Shown piece after piece: positions 5,579 through 46,607 of a DNA stretch of 64,000 nucleotides. The notes beneath the pieces were generated by a model. It was given only the letters and a program-made list of their open reading frames with translations. It was not told the DNA's origin and made no database searches. Made by a program: the position numbers and the translations under genes. The number at the start of each line of letters is the position of its first letter. Position 1 is the stretch's first letter. This DNA comes from Chloroflexota bacterium (GTDB taxonomy: Bacteria; Chloroflexota; Anaerolineae; Anaerolineales; UBA11579): positions 1,832 through 65,831 of the forward strand of contig JACPVG010000004.1 of assembly GCA_016191875.1 (NCBI GenBank), given 5' to 3'.

Positions 5579-6403
5579 CTAGAGTCCGGACAGCTCCGCA
5601 CTCTCCCGCAGAATGCCTGGGAACAGCCGGGCGGCCAGCCGCCAGTCGCGGCGCGCTTGCCAGCGGTCGTCGTAGCGGATGGCCGCATGGCGCTGGCGGT
5701 CGCCCGCCATCGGGTTGCCCCAGAACACGTGGCTGCCGGTGTTGGCGGGCGAAAGCATCCCCGGGTGAAACTCAAGGCCCAAGAAATCGCAGATTCCCCG
5801 TAGGGCGGCCTCCGGCTCCAGGCACAGGCGGTCGTAACTCACCACATAGTGCGCCAGCCCGCCGCGGGCGCAGAAACGGGCGATGGCCCGGTTTCTTAGA
5901 TGCCACTTCCAGAACAGGTAGGCCGGCTGGCGAGTGGTCAACCGGTGGGCGGCGCGCGCCAGGCGGCCGCGCCCGCGCTCTTTTTCCAGCGCGTCGCGCT
6001 GCGAGACGACGAACGACCGCACGTCCTTGATGACGTGCAACACCCGCACCGAAACCCCCGGCGCGTCCAGCCAGCGTTCCAGCGCGGGCAGGTACTTGGA
6101 CGAATCGACCGGCATCGCCTCCGGCCCGAAGACCGCCGCGAAATGCGCCAGCAGCGGCGCGGCGCGCTGCCCGGCAGGCAGGCCGGGCAGCGCGTCGAAC
6201 GCCCCCGCCCAGAAAGCGCATTCGCTCACCGGCCGGCCGCAGGTGCACGGCATCACCCGTTCCTCGGCGTATTGCTCCGGCGTAAAGGCCAGCACCTTGT
6301 CCAGTTCGCCCAGGCCTGTCAGGCGCGGGTGCGCCCCCAGCAATAGATCAAGCAGAGTGGAGCCGGAATGCGACAGCCCGGCGATGAAGACGATTTCCGT
6401 CAC
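5579..6403 (-). CDS. Sulfotransferase family protein
   Basis: N-terminal PAPS-binding loop IAGLSHSGSTLL. Size and layout are typical of bacterial sulfotransferases. Confidence 0.7.
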   Translation of the reverse strand: MTEIVFIAGLSHSGSTLLDLLLGAHPRLTGLGELDKVLAFTPEQYAEERVMPCTCGRPVSECAFWAGAFDALPGLPAGQRAAPLLAHFAAVFGPEAMPVDSSKYLPALERWLDAPGVSVRVLHVIKDVRSFVVSQRDALEKERGRGRLARAAHRLTTRQPAYLFWKWHLRNRAIARFCARGGLAHYVVSYDRLCLEPEAALRGICDFLGLEFHPGMLSPANTGSHVFWGNPMAGDRQRHAAIRYDDRWQARRDWRLAARLFPGILRESAELSGL

Positions 6404-12652: not shown

Positions 12653-15600
12653 ATGCTTGCTGAACTGAATCCCGGTGACATCATCAATGAACGCTATCGC
12701 CTCGATGTGCTGATAGGCCGCGGCGGAATGGGGGTGGTTTACCGCGGCCACGACATTCTGTTGGAGCGTGAAATCGCTCTGAAGCTGATGGCATACACCA
12801 GTATGGGGGATGACGTTCGACAACGCATGCTGCGGGAAGCGCAGCTCGCCGCCCAACTCACACACCCGAATATTGTCGCCGTCCACGATGCCGGCCAGGT
12901 GAACGGAACGCCATACATCGTCATGGAACTGGTGGAAGGTCACACCCTCAGGCAGTTTAAAGGCGAGTCGCTGGACCAGGTCATCGCGGTAGCCGAGCAA
13001 ATCTGTCTTGCACTGTCCCATGCCCACCAACATGGCGTGGTGCATCGCGACCTCAAGCCGGAGAACATCATCATCGGCTCCAACGGCAACGCCAAATTGA
13101 TGGACTTTGGCCTGGCCCATTTGCATGCCAGTAACCTGACCACCACCGGCGTCATGCTCGGCACCGTCAACTACATGGCCCCCGAGCAAATTCGCGGCGA
13201 TAAGCTCGACCCGCGCACGGACCTCTATGCGCTGGGCGTGATGCTGTATGAAATGTTGACGGGTTCCGTGCCCTTTGAGGCCGATACAGCGCTTGCCGTT
13301 ATCACTCAGCATCTCTATGCGCCGCCCGTGCCGGTCTGTGCCCGGAATGCTCAAATTCCCGCCATGTTGGATGGGCTGATCAGCCAGTTGTTAAGCAAAG
13401 AGCCGGATGAGCGCCCCAACTCAGCCGAAGTGGTGCGTGCTGCGTTGCTGGCTTCGATTTCCGCCCCCTCGCAAGAGCAACCCGCGGACGTGCCAGCCCT
13501 GGAACGCATCGCCCGCGGTCGGTTGATTGGCCGCCGGGAGGAAGTGCAGCAGGTTCGCGCCCATCTGCGTCAGGCAATAGGTAGCAAAGGCAGCCTGGTA
13601 CTGATCAGCGGCGAGCCGGGCATTGGCAAGTCCAGGCTGGCACAGGAAGTGATGGCGGAAGCGGACGCAAGCGGCGGGTACGTACTCAGGGCGTTGTGCT
13701 TTGAAGAAGGCGGCGGCCCCTATGATGTCTTCGCCCAACTTCTGCGCAAAGTCCTCCTGGAGGATAAGGCCCTCCCGGAACTGCCCGAGTTCGTCCTAAG
13801 CGACCTGCTCACCATCGCCCCGGACCTGCAACCTGCTTTTCCAAACCACCTGCCCCAGCCGGTTGGAGACAGCCAGTTTCAACAGCAGCGACTTTTGCAA
13901 AGCGTGAATACTTTTTTTCAAAAACTTGCTGCCCAACGACCGCTGGTGGTTGTCATCGAAGACCTGCACTGGGCCGATGCAAGTACCCTGATTCAAATTG
14001 GGCACCTGGCGCGCCATCTTGTCCACTGGCCGCTGTTGCTCTTAGCGACCTATCGTGAGGTGGAACTAACGTACAACCCGGCGTTCCAACGTCTGCTCGC
14101 TGGGTTTAACCGCGAACGAGTAGGGACGCGCATAAAAATCGCGCGACTTGGTCTCGATGAAACCCGAACCCTGCTGGCAAGCATGTTTGCCGAGGAAATC
14201 ACCGATGATTTTCTGGAAGGCATCTATAAGGAGACCGAGGGCAATCCTTTCTTTATAGAAGAGATTTGCAAAGCGCTTCTGGAGAGCGGCCGGCTTTACT
14301 ACCAGGAAGGGCAGTGGCACCGTCCGAGCATCGCAGAGCTGCGTATCCCTCAGGGAATCCGGGTCGCCATAGAAGAACGCGTGGGCAAACTTCCCGACGA
14401 ATGCCAGGAAGTGCTCAACATGGCAGCGATATTCGGCCAACGGTTTTACTATGACGCCCTGCAATTGGCTTCCGGAATGGAAGATGAGCAGGTATTGCTG
14501 GCGCTGGAACAGGCGGAAGACGCGCAGTTGATTCATGGTTCCAGCGATAATTACGGCGTCTCGTTCACGTTTGCACATGCGCTCATCCCTTCTTCACTGG
14601 CGGAAAATCTGAATATCCTTCGCCGCCAGCGAATGCATGCTCGCGCCGCCGAGGCGCTTCTCCAGGTGCGTCCTGATGACTTCGAGACATTGGCTCACCA
14701 CTTCTCATCCGCCGGAAATCTGGACCGGGCCATTGAATACTATCGGATGGCCGCAGCGCGAAGCCGGAGCGTATACGCTTATGCCCTGGCTCTTGAACAG
14801 ATTCAGACCGTCATTGACCTGGTCAAAATGGATTCACAGTCGGCCATCCGGGTGGATGTTTACGAAGAGCTGGCCGATGTGCAAACCATCTATGGGCAGG
14901 CCGATTTAGCTATCGAGAACTACCGCCATGCCCTTGATTTGCTGGCCAGCGCGAAAGACCCCGACAGGTTGACAGTTATTCGCCTTCATCGCAAGTTGAT
15001 CGACTCGTTGACGCGTGTGCTGTGGTTTGAGGATTTGGCCCGCGTTCAGCATCTGGTCGATCGCAGCCTGCGCGAGGCCCCTCCGCTGGCGGAGGAAGTG
15101 CCACCCCACGCTGAAGTTGTGTTTCTCTATCAGGCACTGGGGTCAACCATCGGGCGAGACCCGGTGCTTGCAACGAAATCAATTGAAGAATATTCCCAAA
15201 AAGCCCTGGAGATTGCCCAACAGCTTGGCGAGCCAAGAGTTAAATCGGCCGCTCTTGGCGCCATGGCAGTCATGCAGTTGGTTATGGGAAATCCACAGTT
15301 AAGCCGCGGCTATTCCGAACAACGCCTGGCGCTGATTGAAGAACATTTGCCGGATGATCTGGTTGAGCGAATTGATGTCTTGCGACTGCTCACGCAAAGC
15401 CTGATGCAGATGGGCGAATTTCCGCGCGCCATGGAACTGTCGCGCGAGGCGTACCAACTTGCCAGCCGTGTTCATCATGTCAACCTGATGTTGTTTTCCC
15501 TCGTCCGCCAATCGGTATGCGAGTTTTCAATGGACCGTTGGGACAACGTGCTTGCTTTGGAGAAAAACATCATATCGCTTGAACGCGAGTACGAAACTAT

Positions 15601-15766
15601 CTTTGAAGGTCAGCGCGCTTCCTGTTTCCACATCGGACTGATGGCCGCAATTCATATATTTCGAGGAGACGCGGAAAAAGCTGGTGAGCTGACCAGACGG
15701 TCCCGTGAAATCATGATGAGCATCAATGGTCCTGAGGAACATTGGGATCGCTCCAGCCGGTATTGA
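12653..15766 (+). CDS. Ser/Thr kinase - AAA/STAND ATPase - TPR multidomain regulator (PknK-like architecture), ending at an in-frame TGA
   Basis: N-terminal kinase (GRGGMGVVY, HRDLKPENII, DFGLA). Walker A GEPGIGKSRL, followed by long helical-repeat/TPR-like sequence. Confidence 0.85.
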   Translation: MLAELNPGDIINERYRLDVLIGRGGMGVVYRGHDILLEREIALKLMAYTSMGDDVRQRMLREAQLAAQLTHPNIVAVHDAGQVNGTPYIVMELVEGHTLRQFKGESLDQVIAVAEQICLALSHAHQHGVVHRDLKPENIIIGSNGNAKLMDFGLAHLHASNLTTTGVMLGTVNYMAPEQIRGDKLDPRTDLYALGVMLYEMLTGSVPFEADTALAVITQHLYAPPVPVCARNAQIPAMLDGLISQLLSKEPDERPNSAEVVRAALLASISAPSQEQPADVPALERIARGRLIGRREEVQQVRAHLRQAIGSKGSLVLISGEPGIGKSRLAQEVMAEADASGGYVLRALCFEEGGGPYDVFAQLLRKVLLEDKALPELPEFVLSDLLTIAPDLQPAFPNHLPQPVGDSQFQQQRLLQSVNTFFQKLAAQRPLVVVIEDLHWADASTLIQIGHLARHLVHWPLLLLATYREVELTYNPAFQRLLAGFNRERVGTRIKIARLGLDETRTLLASMFAEEITDDFLEGIYKETEGNPFFIEEICKALLESGRLYYQEGQWHRPSIAELRIPQGIRVAIEERVGKLPDECQEVLNMAAIFGQRFYYDALQLASGMEDEQVLLALEQAEDAQLIHGSSDNYGVSFTFAHALIPSSLAENLNILRRQRMHARAAEALLQVRPDDFETLAHHFSSAGNLDRAIEYYRMAAARSRSVYAYALALEQIQTVIDLVKMDSQSAIRVDVYEELADVQTIYGQADLAIENYRHALDLLASAKDPDRLTVIRLHRKLIDSLTRVLWFEDLARVQHLVDRSLREAPPLAEEVPPHAEVVFLYQALGSTIGRDPVLATKSIEEYSQKALEIAQQLGEPRVKSAALGAMAVMQLVMGNPQLSRGYSEQRLALIEEHLPDDLVERIDVLRLLTQSLMQMGEFPRAMELSREAYQLASRVHHVNLMLFSLVRQSVCEFSMDRWDNVLALEKNIISLEREYETIFEGQRASCFHIGLMAAIHIFRGDAEKAGELTRRSREIMMSINGPEEHWDRSSRY

Positions 15767-16249
15767 ATATGCCAGCCGCTTAAAGCACAGGGCGAGTTCG
15801 CTCTGGTCAAGGAACACATCGTGAAAGCCCTGCAAGTGCCCTCTTCCCTATTCTTTGAATTGGAGCTCATCGGCCTGCTGGTGGATGCGGCGGCTGAAGC
15901 CCAGAACAGGGAGGTATTACAGGAATATCTCGCCAGAGTTGAGGCGCTGGCGCAGGGCTTGAACAATCATCTATATTTGGGAATCGCCCATCGAGGTTTT
16001 GCGGCACTACTATCCCTGGATGGAAATTTTGCCGCCGCTCTGGAGCGCCTTGACCAGGCCATTGAAAGTTTTACTTTTCTTGGCCTTGCTTACCAGCTTG
16101 GCAGGAGCCATGCCCAGCGAGCAAGTGTGCTGGCGATGCTTGGCCGGAACGAGGATGCCCAACAGGCTCTTCATCAGTCGCTTGATTATTACAATCGTCT
16201 TGGAGCAACCCTCGCCATCGAGAAGACCAGACACATGCTCGACATGTGA
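15767..16249 (+). CDS. TPR-like C-terminal segment in the same frame as 12653..15766 (a continuation, or a separate GTG-started ORF at 15821)
   Basis: (15821-12653) is divisible by 3. There is no stop between 15767 and 16249. The helical-repeat sequence continues the upstream domain. Confidence 0.5.
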   Translation: MCQPLKAQGEFALVKEHIVKALQVPSSLFFELELIGLLVDAAAEAQNREVLQEYLARVEALAQGLNNHLYLGIAHRGFAALLSLDGNFAAALERLDQAIESFTFLGLAYQLGRSHAQRASVLAMLGRNEDAQQALHQSLDYYNRLGATLAIEKTRHMLDM

Positions 16250-18993: not shown

Positions 18994-19060
18994 GCAAATG
19001 CCGGAGGCATTTGCTTAGAGTTGGGGAAAGCCCAACTCCATTCGCTCAGGGTGACAAGCC
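18994..19060. repeat. Two-hairpin repeat element, copy 1
   Basis: GCAAATGCC-GGA-GGCATTTGC, then TAGAGTTGGG-GAAAG-CCCAACTCCAT. The homologous copy is at 40362-40410. Confidence 0.7.
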
Positions 19061-23257: not shown

Positions 23258-23312
23258 AGGCCAACGCGTTCCAGTAGTCCTCGTAGCGGGCGATGGCCTT
23301 ATCCAGCACCCC
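23258..23312 (-). pseudogene. Short relic homologous to the interior of the M16 peptidase gene
   Basis: 50/55 nt identity to 39500-39554, including a 31-nt exact run (23282-23312 = 39524-39554). The minus-strand reading GVLDKAIARYEDYWNALAF compares with GVLDKAIARYGGYWNAMTY. Confidence 0.5.
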
Positions 23313-23351
23313 CGACTTCCCGACTTCCAGACCTCAAGACTTCCAAACTTG
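23312..23351. repeat. Phased 8-nt word tract (CCGACTTC CCGACTTC CAGACCTC AAGACTTC CAAACTTG)
   Basis: Exact 8-nt register. Same GACTTC word as at 19607-19622. Confidence 0.6.
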
Positions 23352-24766: not shown

Positions 24767-25033
24767 ACGCGCATTATACGCCGCCGTTGGTGAAAACCCT
24801 GACCAGTGGTAAGCATAGGTGAACCGGGGTTTTGTCTTACTCAGACTACTGCAGGCCCCCGATCCATTCATCAGCCGCGGCTGTGTCTCCGGACCGGTTC
24901 ATCTGCCATCTGTGCGCATCCGTGTCCATCTGTGGTTTGCTTTTGGCTTTCTCCATGCCTCCGTGTGGAATTCGCTTTCCTCATAGATTCTATGATTGCC
25001 CCTTACTGGCTCCGCCGGTACAGTTAATGGCTG

Positions 25034-36420: not shown

Positions 36421-36747
36421 TGTCATTCCGAGGAAGCGGTCAGCCCGGCTTTGAACCTGCGCTCAACCCACCCCGCGACCGAGGAATCTCGCGAACGACT
36501 CCACGGTGGCGGCAATGAATCAGCGGAAAAGAGACATGGCGGTCAAGATTCTCTTCAGCTTCGCTCAAGACAAGCTCTCAGTCGGGTTGGAAGAAGAGTA
36601 TGAAGTAGAGTGAGATTGACCCTCCTTCTTGCTCAATCAACGCCGCACCCGATTGAAGAATCTCGCATAGGTGGCACTGCACCGGCGAGATTGATGCCGC
36701 AGCGCCGATCGCCTTTCGCGAGATTTCTGGCTGCGCTCGGAATGACA
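36421..36747. mobile_element. ORF-less 327-bp element bounded by the same inverted hairpin repeats as the GIY-YIG cassette (MITE-like derivative)
   Basis: Left end is TGTCATTCCGAG[49-nt insert]CGAGGAATCTCGCGAA (36421-36495). Right end is TTTCGCGAGATTTCTGGCTGCGCTCGGAATGACA (36714-36747). Confidence 0.5.
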
Positions 36748-38448: not shown

Positions 38449-39740
38449 TCGGGCGGCTCCTCCGGCAGCGGCTCGCCGGTGGGCAGGTACACGCCCAGCA
38501 CGCGCCGCTCCGGGGCCAGGTACTCGGCCGCCACGCGCTGCACGTCTTCCGGCGTCACCGCCGCCAGACGCTCCAGATAATCCTCGAACCAGCCGTAGCC
38601 GCCCAGCCGTTCGGCGAACCCCAGCCAGAAGGCCTGGTTGGTGATGCTCTCGCTGCCGTAGGCGAACAGCGCCCGCGCCTGCTTCACCGCCCGCGCCAGT
38701 TCGGCCGCCTCCGGCGCACGGGCGCGCGCCCGGGCGATCTGCTCGTCCAGCGCGGCCTCGGCCTCGGCCGGGTCCCGCTCCGGGTGCAGCGTAAGGTGGA
38801 GGGTGTACAGGTAGGGGTCGAGCGTGGCCTGCAACCCGCCAGCGATGTTCACGGCGATGTCGCCCTCGATGAGCGTCTGGTACAGGCGGCTGGTCTTGTT
38901 GGAGATGCCGCCGCCGAAGAAGTTGAGGTTGCTCGGGCCGGTGAGCAGGCTGTCCAGCGCCATGAAGGCATGGAAGTCCGGGCTGTCTGCCGCCGGGGCG
39001 CGGTAGGAGGCATGCAGGAAGGTGGTCTCGCCCGGCCCTTCCACCGTCAGGCGGCGCTCGGCGCTCGGCGGCGGTTCCGGCCGCACGGGCCGGGGCGGCG
39101 GCGGCCCGGCCGGGATGCCCTCGTAGAGCGGCCGCAGCCGCGCCAGCATCTCGTCCGGGTCGAAGTCGCCTGCCAGCGCCAGCACGGCGTTGCCCGGCGC
39201 ATAGTAGGCCCGGTAATGCTCGTAGAGATCGGCGCGCGTCATGCGCTCCAGGTCGGCCATATCGCCGATGACCTCGTGGTGGTAGCCATGCACCTCGAAG
39301 GCCGCGTTCTGGATGGCCTCATCCAGCAGGAAGAGCGGGCTGTTCTCGTTGCCCTGCCGCTCGGAGATGATGACCGTGCGCTCGGAGTCGACGTCCTGCG
39401 GCGCGAAGGCCGCGTTCTGCAGGCGGTCGGCCTCCAGTTCCAGCGCCAGGCCGATGTGCTCGGCGGGCATCGTCTCGTAATAGGCGGTCCAGTCGATGTA
39501 GGTCATCGCGTTCCAGTAGCCGCCGTAGCGGGCGATGGCCTTATCCAGCACCCCGGCCGGGAAGCGCGGCGTGCCTTTGAATAGCATGTGCTCCACCCAG
39601 TGGCTGGCCCCGGTGCGGCCGCCGGGTTCGTCCCGCGAGCCTACCCCCACCCACAGCCACTGGCTGATGAGCGGGGCGGTGCGCATCTCCTTCAGCAGGA
39701 TGCGCAGACCGTTGTCGAGCGTGGCACGGGTGAGGCTCAT
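38445..39740 (-). CDS. M16 family zinc peptidase (pitrilysin-like)
   Basis: The HWVEHMLFKGT inverted zinc motif (HxxEH). Confidence 0.85.
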   Translation of the reverse strand: MSLTRATLDNGLRILLKEMRTAPLISQWLWVGVGSRDEPGGRTGASHWVEHMLFKGTPRFPAGVLDKAIARYGGYWNAMTYIDWTAYYETMPAEHIGLALELEADRLQNAAFAPQDVDSERTVIISERQGNENSPLFLLDEAIQNAAFEVHGYHHEVIGDMADLERMTRADLYEHYRAYYAPGNAVLALAGDFDPDEMLARLRPLYEGIPAGPPPPRPVRPEPPPSAERRLTVEGPGETTFLHASYRAPAADSPDFHAFMALDSLLTGPSNLNFFGGGISNKTSRLYQTLIEGDIAVNIAGGLQATLDPYLYTLHLTLHPERDPAEAEAALDEQIARARARAPEAAELARAVKQARALFAYGSESITNQAFWLGFAERLGGYGWFEDYLERLAAVTPEDVQRVAAEYLAPERRVLGVYLPTGEPLPEEPPE

Positions 39741-39790
39741 GGTGGGCGATTGTACCGCGCCACGGATTGTTGATTGAAGATTGGAGATAG

Positions 39791-39818
39791 TTGATTTGCC
39801 CGTTCGCGCCGCTATAAT
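39791..39818 (+). promoter_or_regulatory. Sigma-70-like promoter TTGATT-16-TATAAT at the edge of the AT-richer island
   Basis: -35 at 39791-39796 and -10 at 39813-39818. An ATG lies 6 nt after the -10. Confidence 0.45.
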
Positions 39819-39824
39819 GGAACC

Positions 39825-39890
39825 ATGCGGCCGGGCGATTTTACAGAGCGTTTACAGGTGCAGGAAAAAGTGCGCCAAGAAAGCATCTAG
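39825..39890 (+). CDS. Possible leaderless 21-aa micro-ORF (MRPGDFTERLQVQEKVRQESI)
   Basis: The ATG sits exactly where the transcription start of the 39791-39818 promoter is expected. There is no other support. Confidence 0.2.
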   Translation: MRPGDFTERLQVQEKVRQESI

Positions 39891-39902
39891 ACCATAGAGT
39901 TT

Positions 39903-40238
39903 GTGCTAATGAATATCAGTGTCGTATTGTCTGGTGCTTTGATAGTAATCACTATGCTAGCGGGTCTAGCAGGTTATTATGATAGAAGGAAACGAAAACT
40001 CTCATTGCTCTCGTTGTTTCTGGGCGGTTTTCTCATTTCGCTGTTCAACTATGATTCTAATCAATCCTTTGTGATATTAAGGGCTTTAGAGTATGGCGTC
40101 ATCGGAACAATTACTGGTTTGATTTTCGTGTTCGCCGGTACTGCAACCTTTGCTGCACTCAAGTGGCAGGTTCCTGTAATCAGCGGCCCGAGGAATTTCA
40201 TCAGATCGGTTTTACAAAGGATTCGACGCGAAAAGTAA
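39903..40238 (+). CDS. Small AT-rich hypothetical membrane protein (3-4 TM)
   Basis: 111-aa ORF whose codon third positions are mostly A/T, unlike every neighbouring gene. Hydrophobic segments and a basic C-terminus. No clear RBS. Confidence 0.4.
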   Translation: MLMNISVVLSGALIVITMLAGLAGYYDRRKRKLSLLSLFLGGFLISLFNYDSNQSFVILRALEYGVIGTITGLIFVFAGTATFAALKWQVPVISGPRNFIRSVLQRIRREK

Positions 40239-40361
40239 GCCCGCATCTGAGTAGGAAAGCCCGTAAAATCCCGTTTACATAGATTTACACGGGTTTTACA
40301 CGCGGGTGATTCGGGACGAACAAGCGAGGGGCAAGATAGGGCTGGCGCCCCCTGCAAGACG

Positions 40362-40410
40362 GGCGAATGCCTTTGGCATTCGCCTAGAGTTGGGCAAAGC
40401 CCAACTCCAT
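40362..40410. repeat. Two-hairpin repeat element, copy 2
   Basis: GGCGAATGCC-TTT-GGCATTCGCC, then TAGAGTTGGG-CAAAG-CCCAACTCCAT. Confidence 0.7.
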
Positions 40411-40765
40411 CGTACAGCATCTGGCGGCCGTGTGGCGAGCCTTTGCTTGTTGCCGTGACCGCGTGATTTAGGTTGCAGCGCAGGGTTACCGCGCCAAAAA
40501 TGGGGGTTCCAGCCAGGGAAAGTCCATTCACCATCAGCGGTAATCGCCCACCAGGGCGTCTTTCCACCTGCTTGTACATTGACATTTGCCCTCTCTCGCT
40601 TTCCCTCCCCGCCTCCCGGTGGTATCCTCCCCATCCGGGGGCTTCCCATCCATGTCTATCTGTGTTCATCTGTGGTTATATTCTCTCCTCCGCCCACCAG
40701 CCCGCTCATCCTGCGCAATCTGCGCCTTCTGCGCAATCTGTGATTCCGCGCCCAGCAGGGCAGGC

Positions 40766-41039
40766 GAATGCTACACGAATGCTACACGATGGGGACAGAT
40801 GCTACACGGATGCTACATGGATGTGACATACATACGACACGGATGTGACATGGATATGACAGAAATGTTAACAGGTGTGTCGCGCCATGTCACATTGTCA
40901 CATCCGGAGCCACCAGGGACATTCACACCGGCTCAAGCCCCGCTCAGGGACATGAAAGGACATCAAAGGGACATGCGAGGGACATGGAAAGGACAGAATT
41001 GTTAACAGGTGTGTCGCGCAATGTCCCTTTGTCCCATCC
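40766..41039. repeat. Two tandem modules: phased ~11-nt word arrays plus a bulged hairpin with a conserved 24-nt loop
   Basis: See the first finding. The identical 20-mer TGTTAACAGGTGTGTCGCGC occurs at 40866-40885 and 41000-41019. Confidence 0.75.
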
Positions 41040-41195
41040 CAAAAGACAGCCGCCCTCTCCCGTGGACGGCCAGGACATCTTGAAGACGCACCGAAGACAC
41101 CTTCAGGACGGGGGGTATCTTGTCCCCAAATCCTTCGCCGCCCACCCGGCCATGGGCAACGGACGAATCAGACCATTCAGACGATGGAGACGAAC

Positions 41196-44966: not shown

Positions 44967-46607
44967 ATGCCGAAACTAAGAATTGTTCCCCTGGGGGGGC
45001 TCGGGGAAATCGGTAAGAACATGATGGTCTACGAATATGGTGATGACATCATCATCGTTGACGCTGGCATCATGTTCCCCGAAAACGACATGCTGGGAAT
45101 CGATTACATCATCCCCGATTTCCAGTACCTGAAAGACAAGACCCACAAAGTGCGCGGCATCATCATCACGCACGGCCACGAAGACCACATCGGGGCCGTC
45201 CGCCACGTGCTGGAAGAGATCAACGCGCCAGTCTACGCCACGCCGCTCACGCTTGGTTTCATCGAGGGCAAACTGGCGCGCGACGGCAACCTGGATACCG
45301 CCCAGCTGGTCACCATCAATGCCGGCGACACGTTCCAGGTCGGGCCGTTCAAGATCGAGTTCGCCCACGTCTCTCACTCCATCCCGGACTGTGTGGCCCT
45401 GGGCATCGAAACGCCCGAGGGCCTCATCGTCCACACCGGCGACTACAAGTTCGACCACACGCCGGTGGATGGCTGGCCGACCGACTACGCCAAGCTGGCG
45501 GAATGGTCATCGCGCGGCGTGCTCGCCATGCTGGGCGATAGCACGAATGCCGACAAGAAGGGCTGGACGCCCTCTGAGCGCGTCATCGACGACGCCTTCG
45601 ATAAGGTCTTCCGCGACGCCCCCGGCCGCATCATCGTGGCCTCGTTCGCCTCGCTGGTCTCGCGCATGCAGCAAGCTGCCGAAGCCGCTAGGCGCTACGG
45701 GCGCAAAATGGCTTTCGCCGGCACCAGCATGCGCGAGAACGCCAAGATCGCCATCCGCCTCGGCTACCTGGATCTGGACGAAACGCTCATGATCCCCATC
45801 GAAGAAGCCCTGAAGCTGAAGCCCAACAAAGTGGTGTTGATGGCGACGGGCACCCAGGGCGAACCTTCGTCCATTGTCGGCCGCCTTTCGGTCGGCACCA
45901 ATCGCGCCTTCGACATCAAGGAGGGCGACACAGTGGTGCTCTCCTCCCATCCCATCCCCGGCAATGAGGAGATGGTCTCGCGCACCATCAACCGTCTGTT
46001 CCAGCGCGGCGCCAACGTAATCTACGACCCGATCGCGCCGGTGCACGTCTCCGGCCACGCCGCCCAGGAAGAGATGAAACTCATGCTGCACCTGGTCAAG
46101 CCCAAATACCTGATCCCGGTGCACGGCGAACTGCGCCACCTGCGTCAGCACGCCTGCCTGGCCGAGGAACTGGGCATCCCGCGCGCGAACATCGCCGTGG
46201 TGGAAAACGGGCGCGTCATCGAGTTCGAAAAGGGCAAAATGAAACTGGCCGAGCGCGTGCCGGGCGGTTACGTCTTCGTGGATGGCACCCGCGTCGGCGA
46301 GGTGAGTTCGGCGGTGGTGCGCGAGCGCGAGCAACTCTCGCGGGATGGCGTCGTGTTCGTCAACCTGGTGGTGAGCCACAAAGACCGCCGCCTAATGGAA
46401 GAACCGGAGATCATCACGCGCGGCTTCATCCACGCCGAAGACAGCGAATCGGCCGAAATGCTCAGCCGGGCGCGCCAGCACATCACCGACCGGGTGGCCT
46501 CCGCCAACGGCGACCTGCGCAGCGGATTGGAAACCAGCCTGGCTTCGTACCTGCACCAGCAGACCCGCCGCCGCCCGATGGTGTTCGTGGTGGTCAACGA
46601 GGTCTAG
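44967..46607 (+). CDS. rnj: Ribonuclease J
   Basis: LGGLGEIGKNM, ITHGHEDHIGA, beta-CASP region, HVSGHA. Confidence 0.9.
   Translation: MPKLRIVPLGGLGEIGKNMMVYEYGDDIIIVDAGIMFPENDMLGIDYIIPDFQYLKDKTHKVRGIIITHGHEDHIGAVRHVLEEINAPVYATPLTLGFIEGKLARDGNLDTAQLVTINAGDTFQVGPFKIEFAHVSHSIPDCVALGIETPEGLIVHTGDYKFDHTPVDGWPTDYAKLAEWSSRGVLAMLGDSTNADKKGWTPSERVIDDAFDKVFRDAPGRIIVASFASLVSRMQQAAEAARRYGRKMAFAGTSMRENAKIAIRLGYLDLDETLMIPIEEALKLKPNKVVLMATGTQGEPSSIVGRLSVGTNRAFDIKEGDTVVLSSHPIPGNEEMVSRTINRLFQRGANVIYDPIAPVHVSGHAAQEEMKLMLHLVKPKYLIPVHGELRHLRQHACLAEELGIPRANIAVVENGRVIEFEKGKMKLAERVPGGYVFVDGTRVGEVSSAVVREREQLSRDGVVFVNLVVSHKDRRLMEEPEIITRGFIHAEDSESAEMLSRARQHITDRVASANGDLRSGLETSLASYLHQQTRRRPMVFVVVNEV

Follow-up and report, generated by a model that had tools for sequence, protein, structure and literature searches.

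An AT-rich island between the DegT and M16 peptidase genes of an uncultured Anaerolineae genome is probably a decayed polymorphic-toxin cassette followed by noncoding repeat DNA

The locus described here is an AT-rich island at positions 39741 to 41195 of a 64,000-nucleotide stretch (the window) of contig JACPVG010000004.1, which belongs to a metagenome-assembled genome (MAG) of the Chloroflexota. The island lies between the start of an M16 peptidase gene (M16a, 39740) and the stop of a DegT gene (41196). From left to right, it holds a promoter, a 21-codon micro-open reading frame (micro-ORF), a gene for a small hydrophobic protein (ORF111), and a tract of tandem and hairpin repeats. A first-pass annotation, made from the sequence alone, had singled out this region as AT-richer than its surroundings and nearly devoid of genes, and windowed statistics bear this out. 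The GC content is 0.527, against 0.644 for the whole window, and the island is the GC minimum among all 1455-nt windows (0.08th percentile). GC at third codon positions is 0.88 to 0.93 in the flanking genes, while every ORF inside the island is flat in GC across codon positions; by this comparison, none shows native codon bias. The ∼950 bp to the right of ORF111, described earlier as lacking any credible ORF, contain ORFs of up to 202 amino acids (aa), all flat in GC and none with a Pfam, PHROG, or PADLOC match.

We agree with the earlier annotation that this is not a classical genomic island or integrative element. The neighboring genes within ∼10 kb have housekeeping functions (two M16 peptidases, ACPS, penicillin amidase, DegT, MscS, and RNase J), and no integrase or transposase occurs among them. 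A tRNA search of the whole window found none, and repeat analysis of the island yielded no convincing terminal repeats. Scanning the whole window against Rfam 15 gave zero matches at gathering thresholds; a scan at E values up to 10 gave a single chance match (MIR5285, 16 bits versus a gathering score of 88.5). Known noncoding RNA families thus do not account for the island.

Synteny, by which the annotation had left its proposal to be judged, shows that the region is not conserved. In one relative (L004, 75% identical), DegT lies directly upstream of M16 on the same strand, with a spacer of about 290 nt. Other relatives have other neighbors, such as a histidine kinase gene 10 nt upstream of M16 (L001, 89%) or a permease gene (L002), and the spacers range from 10 to 290 nt. 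Among the 80 Anaerolineae loci long enough to show the M16 gene neighborhood, most keep the order M16a-M16b-ACPS, and DegT is upstream in none of them. The island interior has no similarity to the DegT-M16 spacer of L004, with which only 12 nt at the M16 promoter align. Because DegT and M16 are ∼290 nt apart in L004 and the interior cannot be aligned to that spacer, the island appears to be a lineage-specific insertion into an ancestral DegT-M16 junction. Its native left edge is marked by the −10 box of the M16 operon (TACAAT, 39749 to 39754, minus strand), which stands 8 nt before the M16a ATG in a leaderless-type arrangement; L001, L002, L004, and the window all keep TACAAT-N7/8-ATG ahead of M16a. 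The native right edge is probably a terminator-like hairpin with a T-run (41047 to 41072, minus strand; 9 pairs, 6 of them G-C; tail TCTTTTGGGA) that lies 124 nt past the DegT stop.

The left part of the island opens with the promoter TTGATT-16-TATAAT (39791 to 39818, plus strand), rated as good in the first-pass annotation. It matches 10 of 12 consensus positions in a consensus scan, and a paralogous locus retains its −10 block: CGCGCCGCTATAATGG-N4-ATG is common to the window and to the short RHS gene with a variable C terminus (RHS-CT) of locus L141. The fuller arrangement CGCGCCGCTATAAT-N6-ATG was found in one relative besides the window. The micro-ORF that follows (39825 to 39890, plus strand) had been flagged as possibly leaderless; its ATG indeed stands 6 nt past the −10 box, and its 21 codons read MRPGDFTERLQVQEKVRQESI before the stop. 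By tblastn, residues 7 to 33 of P0127 match positions 39807 to 39887 with 78% identity (E = 3.7e-8), and the micro-ORF is 71% identical to residues 1 to 21 of both P0126 and P0128. These three proteins are short RHS-type toxins with the N termini MRPGDFTGSLHVREKPGQESIY (P0126), MKPGDFTGRLQVREKVLQDSIY (P0127), and MSLADFTERLQVREKRLQESIY (P0128). The stop codon of the micro-ORF (TAG) stands where the paralogues encode Tyr (TAC).

At the nucleotide level, the DNA spanning CGCGCCGCTATAAT to CAAGAAAGCATCTA, promoter included, aligns closely with L141 and with a further locus, L140. The block common to the window and L141 reads CGCGCCGCTATAATGG-N4-ATG...GATTTTACAG.GCGTTTACA.GTGC.GGAAAAAGTGC..CAAGA.AGCATCTA. 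Judged by this homology, the micro-ORF is what remains of the 5′ end of a short polymorphic-toxin gene of RHS type. Stub homology and shared promoter together identify TTGATT-TATAAT as the likely promoter of such a gene. Beyond the stub, tblastn with P0126, P0127, P0128, and their immunity partners found no other toxin segment or match in the window. The RHS core (TIGR03696) is not retained, with only the 21 codons preceding the core tip left; therefore, the window carries a relic and not an intact toxin.

The intact family members show what such a gene looks like in this lineage. P0126 (HYZ26_06435, 328 aa; equal to L140:1-951) and P0128 (HYZ26_06145, 334 aa) come from the same MAG as the window, and P0127 (349 aa) comes from the metagenome that also gave L001. 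Short RHS-tip toxin genes of 328 to 349 aa lie at L140 1-1283 and L141 5893-6942, with at least three copies in the lineage. Residues 9 to 52 of P0126 correspond to the final part of TIGR03696, the RHS repeat-associated core (E = 3.5e-11; 43.4 bits, curated cutoff 32.5). The RHS repeat-associated core ends in a DPxG motif, directly before the variable C-terminal toxin domain. Past the core tip, P0126 continues for about 264 variable residues, rich in Gly and hydrophobic residues, that match no family; an NCBIfam match is confined to the core tip, and the C-terminal domains of the short toxins have no Pfam match. An own TATAAT-N6-ATG promoter of leaderless type precedes the short RHS-tip genes in L141 and the window. 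Since the short genes start just before the core tip and this promoter is conserved, they resemble self-contained transcription units. The toxin and immunity genes of L140 are also low in GC (0.46 to 0.54, versus 0.65 to 0.70 in the flanks).

ORF111 (HYZ26_01925; 39909 to 40238, plus strand) starts 18 nt past the stop codon of the stub and encodes 109 aa from ATG 39909 or 111 aa from GTG 39903. Described earlier as an AT-rich membrane ORF without a ribosome-binding site, it indeed lacks a Shine-Dalgarno sequence, has a GC content of 0.43 (0.44/0.39/0.45 by codon position), and contains three hydrophobic segments. Its stop-free run of 112 codons was matched or exceeded in 76/5000 shuffles. No match to ORF111 was found in Pfam, PHROGs, PADLOC, NCBIfam, or PDB, and a search of 5.8 billion proteins retrieved only the protein itself. 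A HMMER scan of 1.8 billion representatives retrieved one convincing relative, P0123 (HYZ26_06430, 103 aa), encoded in the same MAG. The two proteins are 31% identical over 86 aa (BLASTP E = 3e-12), have their three hydrophobic segments at matching positions, and share the motifs GYYxR..KLS..SLF..GFL and AT[FY]A..KW. ORF111 is thus a real gene with a paralogue.

The paralogue also points to a role. P0125, a cluster mate of P0123 with >90% identity, is encoded on L140, where its start overlaps the stop of the P0126 gene (tgATGg). Such an arrangement, with a small gene overlapping the stop of a gene composed of an RHS core and a variable C terminus, is typical of polymorphic toxin-immunity pairs. 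ORF111, as a paralogue of a protein that begins at a toxin stop, may accordingly be viewed as a candidate orphan immunity protein.

A further link between the island and L140 lies just past the ORF111 stop, in a 3′ junction motif (40239 to 40312, plus strand) that begins with GCCCGCATCT and continues into inverted and direct TTTACA words predicted to fold as a hairpin (about 40262 to 40301). GCCCGCATCT and AGATTTACACGGRTTTTACA are common to the 3′ flanks of ORF111 and of its L140 paralogue; AGATTTACACGGGTTTTACA also recurs in the latter flank, this second block agreeing at 19/20 positions. The flanks share this motif even though the coding regions agree at only about 31% of residues. TTTACAY words at ∼11-nt spacing had been noted before, and three copies are present, at 40274, 40284, and 40295 (10- to 11-nt spacing). 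Positions 40239 to 40270 resemble an inverted copy of toxin 5′ DNA, with a score reached by 0/300 shuffles, and the L140 flank holds an exact 14-mer from the toxin 5′ end (ATTTTACAGGGCGT). We read the TTTACAY words as possible remnants of adjacent cassette starts, which would make them junction DNA of what was once a cassette array.

The remainder of the island (40313 to 41195) is a tract of diverse repeats. A two-hairpin, REP-like interspersed repeat (40362 to 40410, plus strand), correctly recognized in the first-pass annotation as one copy of a repeated unit, has its second copy at 18994 to 19041. The copies agree at 43/49 positions, and hairpin 1 shows a compensating replacement of a G-C pair by A-T. 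We considered whether this repeat belongs to a family of elements with inverted ends present in the window (TGTCATTCCGAG), but the alignment was unconvincing. Farther right lies a C/T-rich tract (40585 to 40745) with a CATCYRTG array (40644 to 40680) and a tandem of CTGCGCAAT × 3.3 (40711 to 40740). Two word repeats had been reported at 40650 to 40745; the CTGCGCAAT tandem stands, whereas CATCTGTG occurs exactly only once, together with variants, and the looser CAYRGATG occurs five times in the island. An array resembling that at 40644 to 40680 is present at 24900 to 24937 of the window (CATCTGC-CATCTGTG-CG-CATCCGTGT-C-CATCTGTGGTT). It precedes a minus-strand gene for a Big_5/PD40 protein by 30 to 66 nt, opposite a gene for a P-type ATPase, and when inverted it resembles the ACAYGGATG units of the module described next.

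The tract culminates in the double hairpin module of the earlier annotation, which proved to be two 81-nt copies, 79% alike. Both contain the 19-mer GTTAACAGGTGTGTCGCGC without any change, and the rest of the window lacks it. Module A (40765 to 40906, plus strand) comprises ∼9 tandem 11-nt units (GAATGCTACAC grading to GGATGTGACAT), a core (GACAGAAATGTTAACAGGTGTGTCGCGC), and two inverted units (CCATGTCACATTGTCACATCC). In module B (40946 to 41039, plus strand), five tandem units (AGGGACATGNA) precede the same core, and two inverted units (AATGTCCCTTTGTCCCATCC) follow it. The tandem arrays span 40765 to 40861 and 40946 to 40995, and both modules fold as long hairpins. Of 24 pairs in the consensus structure of A and B, three are changed on both sides, one is changed on one side, and none is broken. 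Self-identity at a lag of 11 nt reaches 0.418 over 40760 to 41045, the window maximum (0.26 ± 0.03 window-wide). Each core also contains a minus-strand promoter-like site, GTGACA-17-TGtTAACAT at 40893 to 40865 in module A (from the consensus scan) and GGGACA, 17 nt, TAACAA in module B (read from the sequence).

Searches for relatives of the modules were negative within their respective scopes. A covariance model built from both modules found no further copy in 216 kb (the window plus 15 related loci). The core 19-mer had no match in GTDB genomes and four chance matches in metagenomes, two of them in IS21-like helix-turn-helix coding sequence for LTGVSRN and none with repeats; a core 15-mer had 50 matches in IMG/VR, all in unrelated coding DNA. 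A blastn search of the island against plasmids found nothing, and against phages it matched only the AGGGACAT array of cluster K mycobacteriophages. Several known element types were also rejected. An integron attC site is an imperfect palindrome bounded by the core sites RYYYAAC ... GTTRRRY and has an integron integrase close by; here, GTTAACA lies in the loop and not at the ends, does not fit GTTRRRY, and no integrase is present. An invertible promoter does not fit the geometry, with only about 31 nt between the arms, and retrons, riboswitches, and transposon ends were set aside for want of the necessary partner genes or geometry.

Taken together, we consider it probable that the island is a decayed polymorphic-toxin cassette, with an orphan immunity gene and a deleted toxin, followed by noncoding repeat DNA and inserted between DegT and M16. 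The left part (about 550 bp) can be assigned to a recognizable cassette remnant with good confidence, owing to the stub, the paralogue in immunity position, and the shared 3′ motif. Under this reading, 39791 to 40312 retain a sigma-70-type promoter with a leaderless ATG, the first 21 toxin codons, and an intact ORF111, while the toxin body (the RHS core tip and the variable C-terminal domain, about 300 codons) would have been lost by internal deletion. ORF111 would still be transcribed from the toxin promoter, and its product, seated in the membrane, could shield the cell when kin or competitors deliver the matching toxin. The right part is most likely noncoding cassette or junction DNA without a dedicated function, which may have grown through local duplication, slippage, and palindrome-making template switching. 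We prefer such locally amplified junction DNA because of the absence of homologues and of a partner gene, the many differing unit words, and the decaying state of the cassette.

Several observations weigh against this interpretation. The immunity role suggested for ORF111 has two sources, position and paralogy (31% identity). The C-terminal domain of P0126, the toxin partnering the ORF111 paralogue, has no match in Pfam or PDB, and an attempted alignment of the exact deletion junction gave nothing convincing. We asked whether the module cores were copied from the 5′ DNA or the promoter of the toxin gene, and the similarity was not significant (p 0.04 to 0.2); a resemblance of the core to the L141 promoter was dropped since it involves the end of an inverted-repeat element. 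In the module region (40760 to 41115, 356 nt), GGA occurs 16 times on the plus strand versus 5 on the minus strand, a count reached by 3/2000 shuffles. A related CAYRGATG array occurs in another, divergent promoter region (24.9 kb). Finally, all four arm differences between modules A and B keep pairing, and the cores are identical, which hints at constraint rather than junk.

An alternative, which we regard as unlikely, is that the right part holds functional DNA sites. The 9- to 11-nt arrays and modules would be iteron-like sites bound cooperatively on one helix face by a sequence-specific protein, such as a plasmid or phage replication or partition protein, a ribbon-helix-helix-type or OmpR/PhoB-type regulator, or a repressor acting on the promoter-like site within each module; a loop closed by the inverted units, or an operator made of them, would complete the arrangement. 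The strong 11-nt phase is consistent with this, as are the layout of five or more direct units, a core, and two inverted units; the promoter-like sites, each with its −35 element inside an inverted unit; and the array in the divergent promoter region. A comparable layout occurs in cluster K mycobacteriophages (AGGGACAT × 4 to 6 direct, then ATGTCCCT × 3 inverted, just 3′ of the primase gene), and direct-then-inverted arrangements are found in many viral contigs. However, no gene for a Rep, Par, or other DNA-binding protein occurs in the island or within about 10 kb, so that of the features of an iteron origin or partition site only the 11-nt phasing is present. Modules A and B differ in unit words; thus, a single binding protein would need loose specificity. 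Moreover, the 216 kb searched hold no other module copy, and the phage match may be due to chance. In IMG/VR, arrays of a scrambled control 7-mer gave 90 hits, against at least 120 each for GGGACAT and GTGACAT, which places the phage word match within the range given by the control word. Because control arrays are about as frequent, we do not claim homology to the cluster K arrays and treat them as an analogy only.

Among the viral sequences themselves, Mycobacterium phage Reptar3000 (L139 2500-2710, corresponding to 46354 to 46560) and many IMG/VR contigs (L142-L261) carry intergenic arrays of GGGACAT in direct, then ATGTCCC in inverted orientation. These often stand beside a small helix-turn-helix-like gene or a primase gene and look like iteron or operator regions, the control word being about as frequent.

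A more specific proposal, which strikes us as distinctly unlikely, is that the modules and 11-nt arrays constitute a new functional element, specific to this lineage and associated with toxin/immunity cassettes (a GGA-rich decoy RNA, or sites for protein binding or recombination). If true, the element could be a decoy RNA in the 3′ untranslated region of the orphan immunity transcript or a set of phased sites governing cassette expression or exchange, and the module arms would be free to vary provided that pairing and the GTTAACAGGTGTGTCGCGC core stay.

The plus strand of 40760 to 41115 could also be all or part of a noncoding RNA, perhaps a long 3′ untranslated region of ORF111, that acts as a CsrB/RsmZ-like sponge or decoy for an RNA-binding protein; we find this quite improbable. 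CsrB and RsmZ sequester CsrA, for which systematic evolution of ligands by exponential enrichment (SELEX) gave the consensus RUACARGGAUGU. GGA-containing units (ACAYGGAUG, AGGGACAU) are numerous here and accompany two stable hairpins, and the ACAYGGAUG units are similar to that consensus. The strand bias in GGA extends to A-N-GGA (11 on the plus strand versus 1 on the minus strand), folding against shuffles is stronger on the plus strand (z = −3.0) than on the minus strand (z = −1.7), and the compensating changes keep hairpin pairs. On the other hand, there is no Rfam match, the nearest plus-strand promoter is that at 39791, no clear terminator was found, and the hairpin loops do not hold most of the GGA units. 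Repetition of a single unit also yields GGA richness automatically.

It is very improbable that ORF111 arose by chance in AT-rich sequence and that the island as a whole is noncoding debris. Its flat codon-position GC, the missing Shine-Dalgarno sequence, and a single homologue among billions of proteins would fit this explanation. The shuffles rarely reached its stop-free length, however, and P0123 is of like length, with the same layout of hydrophobic segments and shared motifs; the paralogue is itself low in GC and directly follows a toxin gene. The view of the stretch as ordinary regulatory DNA between genes, serving the M16 operon or DegT and conserved in relatives, is hardly tenable: the M16 promoter (TACAAT-N8-ATG) and the DegT terminator-like hairpin do stand at the two edges, but relatives have short spacers and other neighbors upstream of M16, alignment to L004 is limited to the M16 promoter, and both composition and toxin/immunity homology indicate foreign cassette DNA.

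If the decayed-cassette interpretation is right, the AT-rich island becomes a readable history of interbacterial conflict in an uncultured Anaerolineae genome, one that holds a family of short, self-promoted RHS-tip toxin genes with one copy stripped to its immunity gene. As predicted from sequence, the new elements would be a Chloroflexota member of the orphan immunity kind, an undescribed immunity family with three hydrophobic segments, and a toxin cut to a 21-codon stub. Orphan immunity genes shape who kills whom in microbial communities and are little documented in the Chloroflexota. The case also indicates that a micro-ORF next to an unusual small gene can turn out to be a toxin stub. The repeat tail, for its part, is a well-defined puzzle of identical cores, compensating arms, and strict 11-nt phase.

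Other repeats and elements were observed elsewhere. Directly after the homoserine dehydrogenase stop, at 23258 to 23350 of the window, stands a 55-nt copy (50/55, same orientation) of M16a coding DNA (39500 to 39554), followed by an 8-nt tandem repeat (GACTTCCA × 4.6). Elements with terminal inverted repeats (TIRs; TGTCATTCCGAG ... CTCGGAATGACA) occur in the window at 2028 to 2478, 36421 to 36747, and 18875 and in L141 at 5880 to 5900. The TIR element at 2.0 kb carries an ORF of ∼95 aa, GIY-YIG-like by eye, and explains the GC dip there; in L141, a TIR end provides the −35 element (ATGACA) of the promoter of the short RHS-CT gene. A second stretch of lower GC in the window (12653 to 16249, about 0.54 to 0.56) holds a Ser/Thr kinase-AAA_16-TPR (STAND-like) gene and a TPR ORF and is not mobile DNA. 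In other Anaerolineae, 8- to 12-nt tandem repeats of 4 to 10 copies stand just upstream of M16 genes or their neighbors (L112 5871-5985, L136 3399-3456, L133 3457-3640, and L124 3191-3262; e.g., AGGAGCAG × 9.6 and TGAAGAACA × 6.4). Such arrays are therefore not unique to the island, although arrays with at least four copies of a 5-mer at 9- to 13-nt spacing are rare (eight in 0.97 Mb).

Compared with known repeat systems, the right part of the island shows partial likenesses. As in REP/BIME repeats, the two-hairpin unit at 40362 to 40410 has a further copy between genes elsewhere, with a compensating difference in the stem; in contrast to them, only two copies are visible, no RAYT-type transposase was seen, and the family is undescribed. 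The island resembles CsrB/RsmZ in a GGA density that comes from short imperfect repeats (16 in 356 nt) and differs in having its GGA mostly outside loops and in lacking an Rfam match, a dedicated promoter, and a terminator. Plasmid R1 parC has 11-bp iterons around a promoter core. Like the iteron arrays of R1 parC and cluster K phages, the modules have five or more direct units about one helical turn apart, a promoter-like core, and inverted units opposite; unlike them, the modules have differing words, arms able to pair as a hairpin, and no cognate binding-protein gene nearby.

The closest parallels to the left part are the orphan modules of Rhs and contact-dependent inhibition (CDI) systems in Salmonella and Escherichia coli. 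Orphan modules, orphan immunity genes, and rhs-internal promoters are known in Proteobacteria and Bacteroidales (PMC3150448, PMC3967940, PMC7043789, PMC10539506, PMC12247911). Among these, orphan rhs-CT/immunity modules and internal promoters before rhs-CT have been described in Salmonella (PMC3967940, PMC7043789), and orphan immunity genes have been described as well (PMC10539506, PMC12247911). In L141 and the window, the short genes have a TATAAT-N6-ATG promoter, much as Salmonella rhs-internal promoters serve a short Rhs-CT and its immunity gene (PMC7043789), but the promoter sequences are unrelated, and the predicted start is a leaderless ATG here and CTG in Salmonella. The island further departs from the Rhs/CDI orphans in its host, an uncultured Anaerolineae MAG, and in its isolation, with no full-length rhs or secretion genes among the genes examined (30.4 to 47.1 kb). 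Its toxin is cut to 21 codons and not to a C-terminal fragment, its small protein has three hydrophobic segments and belongs to no known family, and about 0.9 kb of tandem and hairpin repeats follow the cassette. In other respects, the island matches these orphans. Other RHS-tip genes of the genome share its 5′ piece, its small gene is a paralogue of one directly after a toxin C-terminal domain, its GC content is below that of the host genome, and its location is lineage specific. As in the Rhs/CDI orphans, the island appears to have lost its toxin and kept the immunity-type gene.

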